A DNA stretch of 59,077 nucleotides from an uncultured Chromatiales bacterium (GTDB lineage: Bacteria; Pseudomonadota; Gammaproteobacteria; SZUA-140), in contig CAYLYS010000002.1 in assembly GCA_964388175.1 (NCBI GenBank), positions 33,424 to 92,500 of the forward strand, written 5' to 3'. The notes under the pieces were generated by a model. The model saw nothing but the letters and a program-made list of their open reading frames with translations. It did not search any database and had not been told where the DNA came from. Within the stretch, counting starts at the first letter, position 1, and every line of letters begins with the position of its first letter. Made by a program: the position numbers and the translations under genes. Shown piece after piece: positions 13,820 through 23,712 of the stretch.

Positions 13820-13942
13820 GGCTCGGTCCGGATCGTATCGGGTTATCTATAAATATCCGTCCACCGTCGCCGATAACAAGCGGGTATGCGGAAAAAAACC
13901 GCCGCCAAGGCGACTCACCCTGGGGATTCTAAGGCAAGTCCG

Positions 13943-15001
13943 ATGTCAAAAAAACCCTTTATCATTAAAGTATTACTTCTGATCACACTGGCCTTCGGCA
14001 GCGTCTCGCAGGCCGATACCGTCAGGCTCGCCCCCGATCATCCGGAGCGCTACGTCGTCATCAGGGGCGACACGCTGTGGGATATTTCCGCGCGCTTCCT
14101 GGAAGATCCGTGGATGTGGCCGGAAATCTGGCACATCAACCCCGAAATCGCCAATCCCCATCTGATTTATCCGGGCGACATCATACGCCTGGAATATGTC
14201 GACGGCAAACCGGTGCTGCGGCTGGAACGGCCGGGCATGGGCGATCTGCACACCGTCAAATTCTCGCCGACGGCGCGCATGACCGTCCTCGACTCCGCGA
14301 TCCCCACCATTCCGATGGACGCCATCGGACAGTTCCTGAAATATCCGCGCATCGTCACCGACGGCGAGCTGGAACGTAGTCCTTATATAGTAGCCAGCAG
14401 CGAGGACCGTCTGATCAGCGGCACCGGCAACAAGGTGTACGCGCGCGGCATCGGCGACGAAGGCATCGTCCGCTACAGCATCGTCCGCCAGGGGCAGGTC
14501 TACCGCAACCCGGACAATCGCCGCGACATTCTCGGCTACGAGGCGATCCATGTCGGCTATGCCACCGTTACCCGCAGCGGCGATCCGAGCACCCTGATCA
14601 TCGAGCAGGCCGAGCGCGAAGTGCTGGCCGGCGACCGCCTGCTGCCGCTGGGTGAGGATGAGATCAACCAGTATTTCCTGCCGCACGCCCCGGCGAAAGC
14701 CGTCGAAGGCAAGATCCTCTCGGTGCTCGACGGCCTGGCCCGCATCGGTCAATACCAGGTGATCGCCCTGAGCCAGGGCGCCGATGCCGGGCTCGAACCC
14801 GGCCATGTCCTCGCCATACACCAGACCGGCGAAGTGATCCGGGACAACTTCACCCAGCAGCGCGCGGCGCGCAAGGTCCAATTGCCGAACGAACGTACCG
14901 GCACCGTCATGCTGATCCGCGTCTTCGACCGCGTCAGCTACGCGCTGGTCATGGAAGCGGCGCGCGATCTGCGCGTGCTCGATACCTTCACCCAGCCCTG
15001 A
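13943..15001 (+). CDS. LysM peptidoglycan-binding domain protein (secreted)
   Basis: Track ORF 13886..15001, with start taken at MSKKPFIIKVLLLITLAFGSVSQA (signal peptide). The LysM motif is YVVIRGDTLWDISARFL...PGDIIRL. It holds the usual position between def and dprA. Confidence 0.8.
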   Translation: MSKKPFIIKVLLLITLAFGSVSQADTVRLAPDHPERYVVIRGDTLWDISARFLEDPWMWPEIWHINPEIANPHLIYPGDIIRLEYVDGKPVLRLERPGMGDLHTVKFSPTARMTVLDSAIPTIPMDAIGQFLKYPRIVTDGELERSPYIVASSEDRLISGTGNKVYARGIGDEGIVRYSIVRQGQVYRNPDNRRDILGYEAIHVGYATVTRSGDPSTLIIEQAEREVLAGDRLLPLGEDEINQYFLPHAPAKAVEGKILSVLDGLARIGQYQVIALSQGADAGLEPGHVLAIHQTGEVIRDNFTQQRAARKVQLPNERTGTVMLIRVFDRVSYALVMEAARDLRVLDTFTQP

Positions 15002-19368: not shown

Positions 19369-20289
19369 CTATACCGCCATCGCCCGATCCACGGTCTGCC
19401 GATCCAGTTGCGGCGCGAACATCTCGATGAAGGCATACATATAGCCGCGCAGCTGACTGCCGCGGCGCACGCCGAGGCGCGTGGTACAGGGCTCGAACAG
19501 ATGGCTGGCATCGAGCATGCGCAGATTGGTATCGCGCTCGGAATTGAAGGCCATGCTCGCCATCAGACCGATGCCGATGCCGATCTCCACGTAGGTCTTG
19601 ATCACATCCGAATCGATCGCCGAAAAGACCACGTTGGGGCGCAGACCGGCGCGCTCGAAAGCCTCGTTGATCTTGATGCGCCCGGCGAAGGAGAAATCGT
19701 AGGTGACGATCGGATACTCCGCGATCTTCTCCAGGGTCAGCGGCTGGTCGCGCAGGATCGGCAGGCCCGGCGGTGCGATGACGCAGTGGTTCCAGTCATA
19801 GCAGGGCATCATCACCAGGTCTTCGAACAGATCGATGCCCTCGGTGGCGATGGCGATGTCGGCGACGCCCGAGGCGGCGAGCTGCGCGATCTGCATCGGG
19901 TCGCCCTGGTGCAGGTGCAGGCGCACGTTCGGATAGCGCTCGACGAAGGTCTTGATCACCGGCGGCAGGGCATAGCGCGCCTGGGTGTGGGTAGTGGCGA
20001 TGGACAGGCTGCCGCCGACCTCGTCGGTATATTCGAAGCCGACCTGGCGAATGTGCTCCAGCTCGCGCAGGACACGCTCGGCCATGGCGAGCACGGCGCG
20101 CCCCGGCTGGGTAATGCCGACCAGACGTTTGCCGTTACGCTCGAAGATCTGGACCCTGAGCTCCTTTTCGAGCTGCCGGATCTGGTTGCTGATGCCCGGC
20201 TGGGCGGTGTTGAGCACCTGCGCGGCGGCGGAAATATTGAGCCCGCAGCGAGCGATTTCCCGGACGTAACGGAGCTGCTGAAAGTTCAT
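19369..20289 (-). CDS. cysB: LysR-family regulator, CysB/Cbl-like
   Basis: Start at MNFQQLRYVREIARCGLNISAAAQVLNTAQPGISNQIRQLE (CysB-type wHTH). It is divergent from a sulfite reductase gene. Confidence 0.8.
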   Translation of the reverse strand: MNFQQLRYVREIARCGLNISAAAQVLNTAQPGISNQIRQLEKELRVQIFERNGKRLVGITQPGRAVLAMAERVLRELEHIRQVGFEYTDEVGGSLSIATTHTQARYALPPVIKTFVERYPNVRLHLHQGDPMQIAQLAASGVADIAIATEGIDLFEDLVMMPCYDWNHCVIAPPGLPILRDQPLTLEKIAEYPIVTYDFSFAGRIKINEAFERAGLRPNVVFSAIDSDVIKTYVEIGIGIGLMASMAFNSERDTNLRMLDASHLFEPCTTRLGVRRGSQLRGYMYAFIEMFAPQLDRQTVDRAMAV

Positions 20290-20316
20290 ACTGCCCGGCC
20301 TCGATATACCCATTAA

Positions 20317-20330
20317 TTATATGCATATAA
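20317..20330. promoter_or_regulatory. Perfect 14-bp palindrome TTATATGCATATAA in the cysB/sulfite-reductase divergent promoter region
   Basis: Read directly. It lies in the only AT-rich stretch between two GC-rich genes. The LysR-type T-N11-A-like symmetry makes it a plausible CysB operator, but this is not demonstrated. Confidence 0.3.
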
Positions 20331-20442
20331 GATACCATTATTTTTTCTAATATAGAAACACTGCTATCATTACCGAGGCATGGTGTGCGCCCGCCCCGCG
20401 CGTGCGGCGCTCCATGATGGAAACCGGGGGAGAAACAAAGCA

Positions 20443-22533
20443 ATGAGTGAAGTGCGATCACTGATCGATCATGAGGAGCTGGAGCGCTTCGAAGAAAGCG
20501 TCCGCTCGTTCCTGTGCAATGAGCTCGACGCGGAACGCTTCCAGTCGATGCGGCTGCAGCAGGGCGTCTACGGTCAGCGCCAGGAAGGCGTCAACATGGT
20601 CCGCGTCAAGATTCCGGGCGGGCGCATGACACCGGCCCAGCTCGAGACCATGGCCGACGTGCTCGAAAGCTATTCCCTGCACGACGTCGCGCACATCACC
20701 ACGCGCCAGGACATCCAGATTCATCACGTGCCGCTGGAAAAGACCCCGCTGGCGCTGAAAGACCTCGGCCGCGGCGGCCTGACCACGCGCGAGGCCTGCA
20801 ACAACACCGTGCGCAACGTCAGTTGCTGCCCTCTCGCCGGCCTGTGCAGCAGCGAGCGCGTCGACATCCGCCAGTACCAGGATCATGCGATGCGTTATTT
20901 CCTGCGTCATCCGCTGACGCAGCATCTGCCGCGCAAATTCAAGATCAGTTTCTCGGGCTGCGAAGCCGACTGCGCCCAGGGCATGATCCACGATCTCGCC
21001 GTGGTCGCGGTGAAGAAGGACGGCCGTTTCGGCTTCAAACTGCTCGCCGGCGGCGGTCTCGGCCACAAGCCGCGCAAGGCGGTCACGGTGGAAGAGCTGA
21101 TCCCCGAGGAAGAGCTGATCCCGTGCATGGAAGCGGTGATCTCGCTGCACAACCGCTATTCCGATCGCAAGCGCCGCGCCAAGTCGCGCATCAAGTTCCT
21201 CGTCGACCGTTTCGGCGAGGAAGGCTTCATCGAAAAATACAAGGAAGAGCTGGCGCGCACCCGCACCGCGCTCGCCGGCCAGAACTACGTCAAGGGCGAA
21301 TGGACCGACGGTACGCCGTCGGAGCACTGCGGCAGCCCGGGCGCGCCGCGCAAGGTCGTGCCCCAGCGCCAGCCCGGCCTGCGCATCTTCCCCGTCAGCG
21401 TGCCGATCGGCGACATGACCGGCCCGCAGATGCGCGGTATCGCCACGCTGATGTACCGTGAAAAGCTCTCCGATCTGCGCGCCACCCAGGATCAGAACCT
21501 GATGCTGGCCGATGTGCCGGAGCATCGCGTCGCCGCCATCCGCGAAGCACTGGCGGAACTCGGCCTGGGCGAACCCAAGACCGGCGACGATGTCGTCGCC
21601 TGCCCCGGCACCTCCACCTGCCGTCTCGGCATCACCTCGTCGAAAACCATCGGCACCAAGATCGACGGCGGCATCCACGATCTGCGCGTGCGCGCCAGCG
21701 GCTGCCACAATGGCTGCGCGCAGCCGGAGACCGGGGACATCGGCATCTACGGCGAAGGCAAGCGCCTGCACGGCAAGCTGGTTCCGCACTATCAGATGTA
21801 CCTCGGCGGCGACGGCCGCAACGGCGGCGACATCGCGGTCAAGGGCCCTTCGGTTCCCGCCGCGCGCGTGCAGCAGGCGATCAAGCGCGTCCAGGACACT
21901 TATGACGGCGAGCGCGTCAACGGCGAGACCTTCTTCGCCTGGGCGCACCGCCAGGAACCGGCATACTTCAGCACTCTGCTCGCCGACATCATGGCCGTGA
22001 CGCCGGAAGAGGTACCTTCGGTGCTCAGCGACCACGGCGACGAACAGGCGTTCAAGGTGTTCCAGTTCGGCGGCGGCGAATGCGCCGGCGCCGCCCAGGA
22101 AACGGTAGCGGCGAATTTCGCCGAAGCCGCCAACGAGCGCAACTACCGCAACGGCTTCCTGATGCAGCGCAAGTACACCGAATCGATCGAATGCGCCCAG
22201 GCCATCGGCCGCCTCATCGGCCAGTCACTGCTGTTCCTCGCCGGCCAGCCGCCGGCGGACGATCTGCGCGACATCGGCCGTCAGCTGTCGACCGCCCTCG
22301 CAGCCAACCCGGCGCTCGGCGAGAGACTGGTGCATTTCGCCGGCCAGATGGAACAGCTGCGCGACGAGTTCGACGAACCGGCCTACCGCCAACTGAACGA
22401 AGCGCTGGATGCCTGGACGGTCACCGCCGCCGCACTGTGCCAGGATATCGATCGCCAGCTCGACCTCAGCGCTTCGCTGCAGAGCATCAAAGGCGCCGTG
22501 GCTGAAAAAAAAAGAGCGAATCTATCGATCTGA
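20443..22533 (+). CDS. Siroheme/[4Fe-4S] sulfite (or nitrite) reductase hemoprotein with a C-terminal extension of about 150 aa
   Basis: Track ORF 20380..22533, with start at ATG 20443 after GGGGGAG. It has two NIR_SIR repeats and cluster ligands in VACPGTSTCRLG and SGCHNGCAQP. It is divergent from cysB. Confidence 0.85.
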   Translation: MSEVRSLIDHEELERFEESVRSFLCNELDAERFQSMRLQQGVYGQRQEGVNMVRVKIPGGRMTPAQLETMADVLESYSLHDVAHITTRQDIQIHHVPLEKTPLALKDLGRGGLTTREACNNTVRNVSCCPLAGLCSSERVDIRQYQDHAMRYFLRHPLTQHLPRKFKISFSGCEADCAQGMIHDLAVVAVKKDGRFGFKLLAGGGLGHKPRKAVTVEELIPEEELIPCMEAVISLHNRYSDRKRRAKSRIKFLVDRFGEEGFIEKYKEELARTRTALAGQNYVKGEWTDGTPSEHCGSPGAPRKVVPQRQPGLRIFPVSVPIGDMTGPQMRGIATLMYREKLSDLRATQDQNLMLADVPEHRVAAIREALAELGLGEPKTGDDVVACPGTSTCRLGITSSKTIGTKIDGGIHDLRVRASGCHNGCAQPETGDIGIYGEGKRLHGKLVPHYQMYLGGDGRNGGDIAVKGPSVPAARVQQAIKRVQDTYDGERVNGETFFAWAHRQEPAYFSTLLADIMAVTPEEVPSVLSDHGDEQAFKVFQFGGGECAGAAQETVAANFAEAANERNYRNGFLMQRKYTESIECAQAIGRLIGQSLLFLAGQPPADDLRDIGRQLSTALAANPALGERLVHFAGQMEQLRDEFDEPAYRQLNEALDAWTVTAAALCQDIDRQLDLSASLQSIKGAVAEKKRANLSI

Positions 22534-22724
22534 GTAGCTTCGGCTGCCCGCTCCACTATATAAAGGCGCGTCACGAGCTGCGGGCACGGACGGCGGGAGA
22601 AATCGTCGAATTCGTGTTCAGCTCGGAAGACGCGGCGAAACAGGCGGCGGGCAGTCTGCGCGAAGACGGTCACGAGATCCTGTCGCTGCAGAACGAGCGC
22701 ACCCTGATCCGCAAACAGTCCTGA
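22506..22724 (+). CDS. TusA/SirA-like sulfur-carrier domain; open frame without ATG/GTG/TTG, in the -1 frame relative to the reductase
   Basis: My translation is KKKSESIDLSSFGCPLHYIKARHELRARTAGEIVEFVFSSEDAAKQAAGSLREDGHEILSLQNERTLIRKQS, with stop TGA at 22722-22724. It has the Cys-Pro active-site layout and the length of the TusA family. It is not in the ORF track. The frame opens inside the A9 run at 22505-22513. Confidence 0.55.
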   Translation, partial: KKKSESIDLSSFGCPLHYIKARHELRARTAGEIVEFVFSSEDAAKQAAGSLREDGHEILSLQNERTLIRKQS

Positions 22725-22753
22725 GCCAACGACCGAGTCGGTGACAAACGCCG

Positions 22754-23182
22754 ATGACAGACGGAAAAAGCGAGGGCACACTGAAGCAATACCCGAAGCC
22801 ATACCGGAACCGCCATCGCGACAGTGCGCCCTTCATCACCAAGGACGGATCGACGGTGCGCGAACTGATGCATCCGGACGTGCACGGCAACCATGCCCAA
22901 AGCCTTGCCGAAGCCGTCGTTCCCGCCGGTGGCCGCACGCTCCTGCATCGGCACCTGCGCAGCGAAGAGCTGTATCACTTCACCGCCGGCAGCGGACGAA
23001 TGACTCTGGGAGAAGACAGCTTCGAAGTCCAGGCGGGCGATACCGTCTATATCCCGCCCGGCACCGCCCATGCCCTGATCTGCGACGGCGCGGACGAGCT
23101 GCGACTGTTATGCTGTTCCTCTCCGCCCTATTCCGACGCCGACACCGAGCTGCTCGGACCGCCGGCGCGACGGGAAAGCTAG
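22754..23182 (+). CDS. Cupin-domain protein
   Basis: 142 aa. HRHLRSEELYHFTAGSG...GDTVYIPPGTAHAL matches the two cupin motifs (G/H-x-H...E and P-x-G-x-x-H). Confidence 0.7.
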   Translation: MTDGKSEGTLKQYPKPYRNRHRDSAPFITKDGSTVRELMHPDVHGNHAQSLAEAVVPAGGRTLLHRHLRSEELYHFTAGSGRMTLGEDSFEVQAGDTVYIPPGTAHALICDGADELRLLCCSSPPYSDADTELLGPPARRES

Positions 23183-23301
23183 CCGCCGGCCGGTTTTGAC
23201 CGGCACGGCTTTGCTTTTTCGCCAGAAAGGGCGATCATGCCATCTTTGCAGAACATCTATCTCCGGTACCGGAGCCGGTATCGGAAAAAATTGAGGAAGC
23301 A

Positions 23302-23712
23302 ATGGAAAATCAGCCGCCTATCATCGTTTCCAGCCTGGATCTGGAACGACTCGAGCACATCCTGGATTCAGGGCAGTACAAGCGCCTGCCGGGTGTCGAT
23401 ACGCTGCGCAAGGAGCTCGATCGGGCGACCATCGTCGAACCCACCGAAGTCCCGCTGGGCGTCGTCACCATGAACTCGACCGCCCGCTTCATCGACGATG
23501 CGACGCAGCAGGAATATGAACTGACCCTGGTCTATCCGGAATCCAGCGGCCCGGCCAACACCGTTTCCGTACTAGCGCCGGTCGGCAGTGCCCTGCTGGG
23601 TCTATCCATCGGCCAGTCGATTTCATGGCAGGTCCCCGGCGGCCGCCGGCTGCAACTGCGCATTCTGGACGTGACCTACCAGCCCGAAGCGGTGGGACTG
23701 TACCATCGCTGA
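23302..23712 (+). CDS. rnk: Nucleoside diphosphate kinase regulator (GreA/GreB C-terminal domain family)
   Basis: 136 aa. IIVSSLDLERLEHIL... and VTMNSTARFIDD...VSVLAPVGSALLGLSIGQSISW are typical of Rnk. Confidence 0.8.
   Translation: MENQPPIIVSSLDLERLEHILDSGQYKRLPGVDTLRKELDRATIVEPTEVPLGVVTMNSTARFIDDATQQEYELTLVYPESSGPANTVSVLAPVGSALLGLSIGQSISWQVPGGRRLQLRILDVTYQPEAVGLYHR

Follow-up and report, generated by a model that had tools for sequence, protein, structure and literature searches.

Well-supported recoding sites in non-mobile bacterial genes are, to our knowledge, few: prfB, dnaX and a handful of others. In the dnaX genes of Thermus and Chlorobi, transcriptional slippage at runs of nine or ten adenosines (A9/A10) gives the tau and gamma products (PMC5009743; PMC3711429). 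Bacterial RNA polymerase, with its RNA-DNA hybrid of 9-10 bp, slips efficiently on runs of 9 A or T, and Thermus dnaX makes two products from such a run (PMC5009743). In reporter tests, the poly-A frameshift sites of Mg-chelatase genes gave 10% for A7, 40% for A9 and 63% for A11 (PMC3711429), and in insect endosymbionts 12-50% of transcripts regain the frame by slippage (PMC5009743). The subject of this article is an A9 tract within 59,077 nucleotides (nts) of DNA from an uncultured Chromatiales bacterium (GenBank assembly GCA_964388175.1, contig CAYLYS010000002.1, positions 33,424 to 92,500), referred to as the window, by which the entire stretch is meant. The tract lies at the end of a gene for a sulfite reductase of the assimilatory type, and a TusA-like sulfur-carrier domain follows it in the -1 frame. 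We consider it probable, from comparison with related loci, that the A9/A10 tract is a recoding site that endows the bacterium with a two-isoform sulfite reductase, mainly via RNA-polymerase slippage. A slip that fuses the TusA domain to the reductase, and so permits two products from one gene, had been proposed in an earlier, sequence-only reading of the window; the comparative data now favor it.

The junction comprises the following elements:

20443..22533, + strand: sulfite/nitrite-reductase-family gene, assimilatory siroheme type; zero-frame short product of 696 amino acids (aa), ending ...AEKKRANLSI before the stop
20380, + strand: alternative upstream ATG for the reductase, from the open reading frame (ORF) list, which would yield 717 aa
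22505..22513, + strand: A9 slippery homopolymer, the putative recoding site; zero frame G-AA AAA AAA A-GA, containing the heptamer A_AAA_AAA
22506..22724, + strand: TusA-like domain in the -1 frame, without its own start codon; 72 sense codons (22506-22721) and TGA 22722-22724
22531-22533, + strand: zero-frame stop TGA closing the short form, arising from the IDL-S/T codons (aTC GAT CTG A) that the TusA frame conserves
22535..22537, + strand: third-frame stop TAG, which ends the reading of A8 or A11 mRNA as a short reductase (697-698 aa)
22545..22550, + strand: Cys-Pro codons TGC CCG of the GCPLH motif, with the presumed persulfide-carrying Cys

Read directly from the letters, the zero frame at the gene end is GCT GAA AAA AAA AGA GCG AAT CTA TCG ATC TGA, with the run exactly where the sequence-only reading had placed it. 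The stop that it put nine codons later is at that distance if counted from GAA, and lies six codons past the second AAA. Its description of the -1 frame is likewise accurate: the frame is preceded by TGA 22503-22505, remains open to TGA 22722-22724, and has no ATG, GTG or TTG between 22506 and the Cys codon at 22545-22547. The translation begins KKKSESIDLSSFGCPLHYIKAR and ends RKQS; in full it is KKKSESIDLSSFGCPLHYIKARHELRARTAGEIVEFVFSSEDAAKQAAGSLREDGHEILSLQNERTLIRKQS. The A9 is the only run of eight or more A or T in the window (65% G+C), where 0.02 would be expected, and the junction run is equally solitary in 94.6 kb of the run-bearing loci described below. Its length and its position at a frame junction are those of Thermus dnaX-type slippage sites, which have 8-9 or more A or T. 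An X_XXY_YYZ heptamer, A_AAA_AAA, is present as well, and a tract of at least nine supplies one in every phase.

According to the proposed mechanism, the DNA as written would produce the 696-aa reductase, which stops six codons past the A run. RNA polymerase slipping on the T9 template would add one A, and ordinary translation of the resulting A10 mRNA would proceed into the TusA-like domain, yielding a 760-aa reductase-TusA fusion (...AEKKKSESIDLSSFGCPLHY...). Across possible transcripts of the window, A9 is predicted to give 696 aa and A10, A7 or A13 a fusion of 759-761 aa. A8 or A11 mRNA would again give short products (697-698 aa), ending at TAG 22535-22537, so that slippage would yield just two kinds of protein. 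A mutation in tract length would shift the balance, and lineages would drift between "mostly short" and "mostly fused" states with the tract retained.

Conservation of the tract and of the TusA-like frame

A search with the hypothetical reductase-TusA fusion protein as query provided 133 loci from species-representative genomes and metagenome contigs, and exact protein look-up a further 5 contigs, 138 loci in all. Relatives at a greater distance (57-72% identity) have NIR_SIR and TusA fused in frame, in proteins of 760-775 aa. Some 45 of the closest protein clusters (66-86% identity) are 693-703 aa long and share the same stop site, ending ...EKK[RTS]xxxSI. The junctions are of four kinds:

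Broken, TusA in the -1 frame: 20 loci, A9 in 15 and A10 in 5
In frame with the tract: 6 loci (L004, L005, L088, L105, L134, L135), A9 or A10
In-frame fusion without a long A run: about 59 loci
Short-only, all forward frames lacking TusA: about 50 loci, mostly betaproteobacterial nitrifiers, no tract

The broken loci, from independent assemblies, include the window, L001-3, L006, L007, L022, L081-85, L089-91, L093, L110 and L136-138. A9 or A10 occupies the homologous place in all 26 run-bearing loci (20 broken and 6 in frame), and a broken junction without an A run was found in none of the 138. Every break (20/20) requires one additional nucleotide, the opposite type being absent. The tract is 9 or 10 long, never 7 or 8, whereas its phase in the zero frame varies (1, 2 or 3), as does the following base (G, C or T). 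Alignment of orthologous loci had been suggested in the sequence-only reading, which held that A10 or an ordinary fusion among the orthologues would count against it. Some relatives do have ordinary fusions, but frameshifts vastly predominate among the closest ones, always at A9/A10, which strengthens the recoding interpretation rather than refuting it.

Judged by its predicted structure, the -1-frame domain is TusA-like. AlphaFold modeled the 72 residues with a predicted local distance difference test (pLDDT) score of 91.6 in the order beta-alpha-beta-alpha-beta-beta, the two-layer alpha/beta sandwich of the TusA fold. The model best matches E. coli TusA: the top Foldseek matches in the PDB were TusA/YhhP (1dcj, 3lvj_C, 3lvk_B) and YeeD (8k1r also listed), with template modeling (TM) scores of 0.70-0.83, those of the TusA/YhhP entries being 0.70-0.80. 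The hidden Markov model comparison proposed in the sequence-only reading gave a closer call, as the window peptide scored 27.5 bits (E 2.8e-6) against Pfam PF01206, narrowly below the gathering cut-off of 28.6. Of its 16 orthologous -1-frame peptides, 12 matched the family at E 0.01 or better (best 4.5e-10), and the fused relatives have a precomputed PF01206 match. A profile of the -1-frame peptides found no PDB TusA by sequence, even at E 10. The canonical TusA N-terminal motif is CPxP (Cys-Pro-x-Pro). Here, the Cys-Pro is invariant in 16/16 complete frameshifted orthologues and in 45 fused relatives, and all relatives share the motif G-C-P-[LVM]-H-[YF]-[IVL]-K-A-R (window 22545-22556), in which His replaces the canonical second Pro. 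In the TusA layout described earlier, the motif is CPLH, not CPxP. This His-for-Pro motif may define a separate subfamily of TusA, confined to appendages of reductases.

Among the 16 complete broken loci, the -1 frame always runs for 69-84 codons without a stop, and none of the residues spelled out in DL..GCPLH..KAR (D, L, G, C, P, L, H, K, A, R) varies. Its median pairwise ratio of nonsynonymous to synonymous substitution rates (dN/dS) among broken loci is 0.30, at nearly saturated synonymous divergence. A canonical start codon is missing throughout the open stretch of the TusA frame in at least 9 loci. As expected of a slippage site, therefore, the downstream domain is conserved and under selection and has no initiation signal of its own.

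A neighbor-joining tree built from the reductase portion unites all run-bearing loci in a single clade, in which the frame state flips at least 4 times with the run retained. L105 is basal and in frame, and L004, L005 and L088 are also in frame; the broken groups are L022/L007/L090/L091, then L089/L093, then L002 through the window. The broken locus L110, left out of the tree because of its short length, has a TusA peptide very similar to those of L004 and L088. L134 and L135 are in frame inside the otherwise broken protein cluster P0014. In L086 the run is interrupted (AAGAAAAAC) and the gene is a plain fusion; in its broken sister L003, the -1 frame reads KKNSERIDL, in alignment with the L086 linker KKNAEDIDL. 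Together, the single run clade with its toggling frame and the alignment of L086 with L003 indicate that the tract arose once and has been kept since.

The tract persists across a clade with up to ~40% protein divergence, a conservation that goes beyond coding. Elsewhere in the run-clade genes, lysine is encoded by AAG 356 times vs 141 for AAA. In L081 and L082, AAA accounts for 0/28 and 1/33 lysine codons, and both retain A9. Retention of the tract despite this AAG preference argues that selection acts on it at the nucleotide level.

The structural context of the tract appears permissive. In the model of the fused relative P0003 (mean pLDDT 79.6), the reductase core is followed by an all-helical domain (548-669), a disordered linker (670-690, with pLDDT <50 at residues 683-690) and the TusA fold (692-759). 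The lysine run sits within this disordered linker, so that one Lys more or fewer should be harmless.

Tract length also varies in DNA among close relatives, which was beyond the readings offered from the window alone. Within the 90%-identity protein cluster P0014, seven truncated members stand beside one 764-aa fusion, P0132. The two contigs of the latter (L134/L135) carry A10 and three contigs of its truncated twin (L136-L138) carry A9, all being at least 99.8% identical. The A10 contigs have 5 differences in about 8,000 positions from the closest A9 contig and 11-14 from the other A9 contigs. A C/T single-nucleotide polymorphism (SNP) located 56 nt upstream of the tract is shared by both A10 contigs, from two samples, and is absent in every A9 contig. 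That the A10 contigs derive from DNA is suggested by their lengths of 9.5-15 kb, by the similarity of their ends and by the fact that they extend over divergent genes. The SNP linkage of the A10 allele indicates that tract length varies heritably within a species, unlike assembly noise, and by this evidence the tract is also a mutational switch. Such polymorphism among near-identical strains is a property of phase-variable contingency loci. The breaks in both OFF frames and the broad length range of such loci were not found, since 20/20 breaks are of the -1 type and lengths are 9 or 10. A9/A10 mixing was not seen in the other clusters checked, so each frame state is usually stable.

Short-only orthologues in the Betaproteobacteria (L034-L080) end 15-30 residues past a QLDL motif and have no TusA domain. 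An example is L035 (2938-5100) of the cultured Nitrosomonas halophila Nm1, in which the next two ORFs after the reductase look by eye like cysH and cysD and are presumed to be so. In L078, the reductase is seemingly fused in frame to what we take to be a cysH-like domain. The occurrence of short-only orthologues in cultured Nitrosomonas, in a cysH-cysD operon, implies that the short form is a competent enzyme. Elsewhere in the family, P0013 (1002 aa) has a divergent TusA-like motif, HPCPINF, and then a long Arg/Pro-rich tail resembling out-of-frame read-through, and P0044 (752 aa) has an internal deletion in the TusA domain; both could be additional frame anomalies of this reductase family.

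Probable slippage and competing explanations

If the tract is a recoding site, either RNA polymerase or the ribosome could slip on it: the uniform type of break is compatible with both, and both mechanisms predict the same junction peptide, EKKKSES. RNA structure around the tract was assessed by folding 45 nt upstream and 60 nt downstream. No stable structure emerged in 21 loci, as fold z-scores scatter around 0 relative to shuffles, and RNAalifold on 17 loci found no conserved one (-1.27 kcal/mol, 4 pairs, no covariation). Inspection of the aligned upstream contexts revealed no consistent Shine-Dalgarno element. The conserved stimulators of programmed -1 ribosomal frameshift sites were thus not found in these loci; frameshift stimulators are usual, yet not obligatory. 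Given a tract that has no stimulators and is never shorter than nine, RNA-polymerase slippage provides a better fit than stimulated -1 ribosomal frameshifting, and the varying phase and next base also favor RNA polymerase as the slipping enzyme. Slippage would then occur mainly during transcription, with both isoforms needed.

Programmed -1 ribosomal frameshifting on A_AAA_AAA (A_AAA_AAG in some orthologues), akin to that of E. coli dnaX, is nevertheless the alternative that accounts for the same protein: a heptamer in the correct phase occurs in every frameshifted locus, and all breaks are of the -1 type. We regard it as unlikely to be the main route, because a tract of 7 would suffice and none below 9 exists, because neither the phase, the following base, a downstream hairpin nor an upstream Shine-Dalgarno element is conserved, and because in-frame loci (L004, L005, L088, L105, L134/135) retain the full tract. 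Slightly less likely still is phase variation in DNA alone, a heritable ON/OFF switch for TusA in which the broken allele yields little fusion. Contingency tracts usually vary widely in length, and this one is confined to 9-10; a single OFF frame is observed (20 vs 0), which argues against a simple ON/OFF switch and against random decay. The broken state is also stable over deep divergence (~45 protein clusters, 66-86% identity), fused members are just 1 among ~30 near-identical cluster members, the product is a cytoplasmic metabolic enzyme, and an A9 tract is expected to slip during transcription regardless. Such a switch would nonetheless account for the A9 and A10 alleles of contigs that are at least 99.8% identical, with A10 linked to a SNP in two samples, for the repeated frame flips in the tree, and for the relaxed constraint on TusA in broken lineages.

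The remaining explanations dispense with slippage altogether. A separate small TusA protein could be made from a non-canonical start or by reinitiation, at the CTG within CTGA or at ATC 22524, which lies 7 nt behind a weak AAGAG; CTGA overlaps are found in the window and several orthologues. The stop-overlapping CTG is missing in L006, L084, L091 and L110, however, on which ground CTG reinitiation was rejected. The rare start entertained in the sequence-only reading is left without support, as this only candidate is not universal and the A run is. At least 9 loci lack ATG, GTG or TTG, the scan found no promoter-like site, and the universal A9/A10 tract and the homologous in-frame fusions would go unexplained; we consider a separate protein very improbable. 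Even less credence is due to a homopolymer sequencing or assembly error that hides an ordinary A10 fusion. Homopolymers are error-prone, all loci are metagenome assemblies, and one near-identical pair differs only in A9 vs A10. Against this, the same break recurs in 20 independent assemblies from different pipelines (SPAdes NODE_, MEGAHIT k141_, JGI, ENA, Logan), sister loci have in-frame tracts of A9 or A10 that were assembled correctly, a SNP accompanies the A10 allele, and frameshifted A10 loci also exist, which contradicts the error that had been offered as an alternative. The same very low probability attaches to gene decay, another of the earlier alternatives, under which the TusA part would be a dying remnant left by a frameshift mutation. 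It contends with 16/16 intact frames in complete loci, an invariant active-site motif (DL..GCPLH..KAR), a dN/dS of about 0.3 across saturated synonymous divergence, and a tract conserved against codon bias; in its favor, short-only orthologues imply that TusA is dispensable in some lineages, and TusA evolves faster in broken ones.

Several observations weigh against recoding by RNA-polymerase slippage. Three lineages of the clade reverted to a tract-free plain fusion (P0003/L086, P0010 and P0012), which makes the two-isoform arrangement dispensable. At equal reductase divergence, TusA differs ~1.4 to 2x more among broken lineages than among plain fusions; this faster evolution implies relaxed constraint, which could mean low or intermittent use. 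The tract loci all come from uncultured organisms, and slippage in them is deduced from sequence. Ribosomal -1 frameshifting on A_AAA_AAA or A_AAA_AAG would give an identical protein, and phase variation in DNA would likewise account for the occurrence of A9 and A10 in one species. Conceivably, although we hold this only tentatively, the tract acts at two levels, with slippage ensuring both forms in each cell and heritable A9/A10 changes resetting their ratio between a mostly short and a mostly fused output. If so, a population could tune, and evolution fix, the stoichiometry of a sulfur-carrier arm on sulfite reductase, and the tract would constitute a selected isoform rheostat for a core metabolic enzyme of free-living, high-G+C bacteria.

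The reductase and its surroundings

The 696-aa product from ATG 20443 is 100% identical to database protein P0001. Its Pfam matches are NIR_SIR (162.8 bits) and NIR_SIR_ferr (103 bits), two stretches each. The motifs ACPGTSTC and SGCHNGC are invariant and provide the C-x5-C ... C-x3-C pattern of cluster and siroheme ligands. The fold of the reductase core in the P0003 model matches M. tuberculosis NirA (1zj8), plant ferredoxin nitrite/sulfite reductase (NiR/SiR), 5h8y and 1aop. The helical domain of ~120 aa between this core and the TusA linker (window about 22000-22440) matches no Pfam family. Ahead of it lies an invariant segment of low confidence, QFGGGEC[AS]GAAQE, with a conserved Cys. The short-only Nitrosomonas orthologues have this helical domain as well.

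Two neighboring genes deserve mention:

19369..20313, - strand: CysB-family LysR regulator, divergent from the reductase (NCBIfam NF009327, 477 bits)
23302-23712: rnk, nucleoside diphosphate kinase regulator of the Gre family, two genes downstream of the A9 tract

Synteny of the reductase with the divergent CysB-type regulator is kept across the entire family. The CysB-family neighbor places the reductase in assimilatory sulfur metabolism, and together with the gene context in Nitrosomonas halophila it supports an assimilatory sulfite reductase. The cupin-rnk-carbonic anhydrase block after the reductase is seen in the closest subclade only (L001, L006, L081, L083, L084, L134-138). Gre-family factors bind the secondary channel of RNA polymerase. 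A tie between rnk and the tract was considered and rejected, as rnk is absent beside other slippery loci; with its restriction to the closest subclade, the link to slippage is probably coincidental.

No tRNA genes were found in the window and no Rfam families in 20000-23500, and the promoter and terminator scan returned no promoter-like site and terminator matches at chance level only. Elsewhere in the window, two A7 runs (13892-13898 and 13948-13954) lie 56 nt apart at the start of the ORF at 13886-15001, where they encode a Lys-rich N-terminus, MRKKTAAK...MSKKPF. Both runs keep the frame, nothing there indicates a break, and either of two ATGs could be the genuine start of that ORF.

Comparison with described recoding systems

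A literature search found no paper that combines transcriptional slippage with sulfite reductase, or TusA with a frameshift, and the sulfite reductase-TusA case is absent from the GeneTack survey and a 2016 recoding review. Nor did we find a description of the present case; a search on the fusion of TusA with assimilatory sulfite reductase gave two papers, both on other subjects judging by their titles. The comparative evidence is unusually clean, as the family offers natural variants of one enzyme (plain fusion, slippery in frame, slippery broken and short-only) as ready-made controls, with which slippage can be measured and the role of a TusA arm on an assimilatory sulfite reductase addressed. 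One may speculate that the arm captures the sulfide product or hands it over as a persulfide. For annotation, ~45 public protein clusters are listed as reductases of 693-703 aa, their TusA domain being overlooked entirely, and a long poly-A tract in a G+C-rich metagenomic gene can be a functional signal rather than an assembly error.

The nearest relatives in architecture are the gammaproteobacterial in-frame NIR_SIR-TusA fusions, annotated [quoted passage not shown]. They have the same architecture and linker, with a residue-for-residue alignment to the -1-frame peptide of the frameshifted loci, and differ in having no slippery tract and a single product. E. coli dnaX (A_AAA_AAG) shares the slippery heptamer of lysine codons, the -1 direction and two products per gene. 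Unlike the sulfite reductase loci, in which no stimulator is conserved, it has a Shine-Dalgarno element and a stem-loop as stimulators; here, the tract is longer than a heptamer and variable in phase. The E. coli shift shortens the protein, whereas that of the sulfite reductase would lengthen it. The poly(A) frameshifts of the endosymbionts Buchnera and Blochmannia are likewise conserved over evolutionary time in long A tracts, but in AT-rich, reduced genomes under weak selection. In the genomes considered here, with 52-69% G+C and AAG preferred, the tract is an anomaly that must be selected. Genes of the Mg-chelatase family (GeneTack clusters) share several features: they are non-mobile cellular genes with a conserved poly-A at the break and the -1 direction, in a different protein family and with tracts of 7 to 11, compared with 9-10 here.

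The likeness also extends to Thermus thermophilus dnaX and the two-ORF dnaX of Chlorobi (PMC5009743, PMC3711429). In these, too, a coding-strand run of 9-10 A is located at a domain boundary with off-frame stops nearby, a long and a short product share the same N-terminus, and the form written in the DNA is long or short depending on the orthologue. As most members here need a slip for the long form, they resemble Chlorobi rather than Thermus dnaX. The protein differs, since the gene at hand specifies a metabolic enzyme with a sulfur-carrier domain, not a replicase subunit, and its slippage is a prediction. Most likely, the A9/A10 tract of this sulfite reductase is an undescribed case of the kind of recoding site known from Thermus and Chlorobi dnaX and the Mg-chelatase genes.

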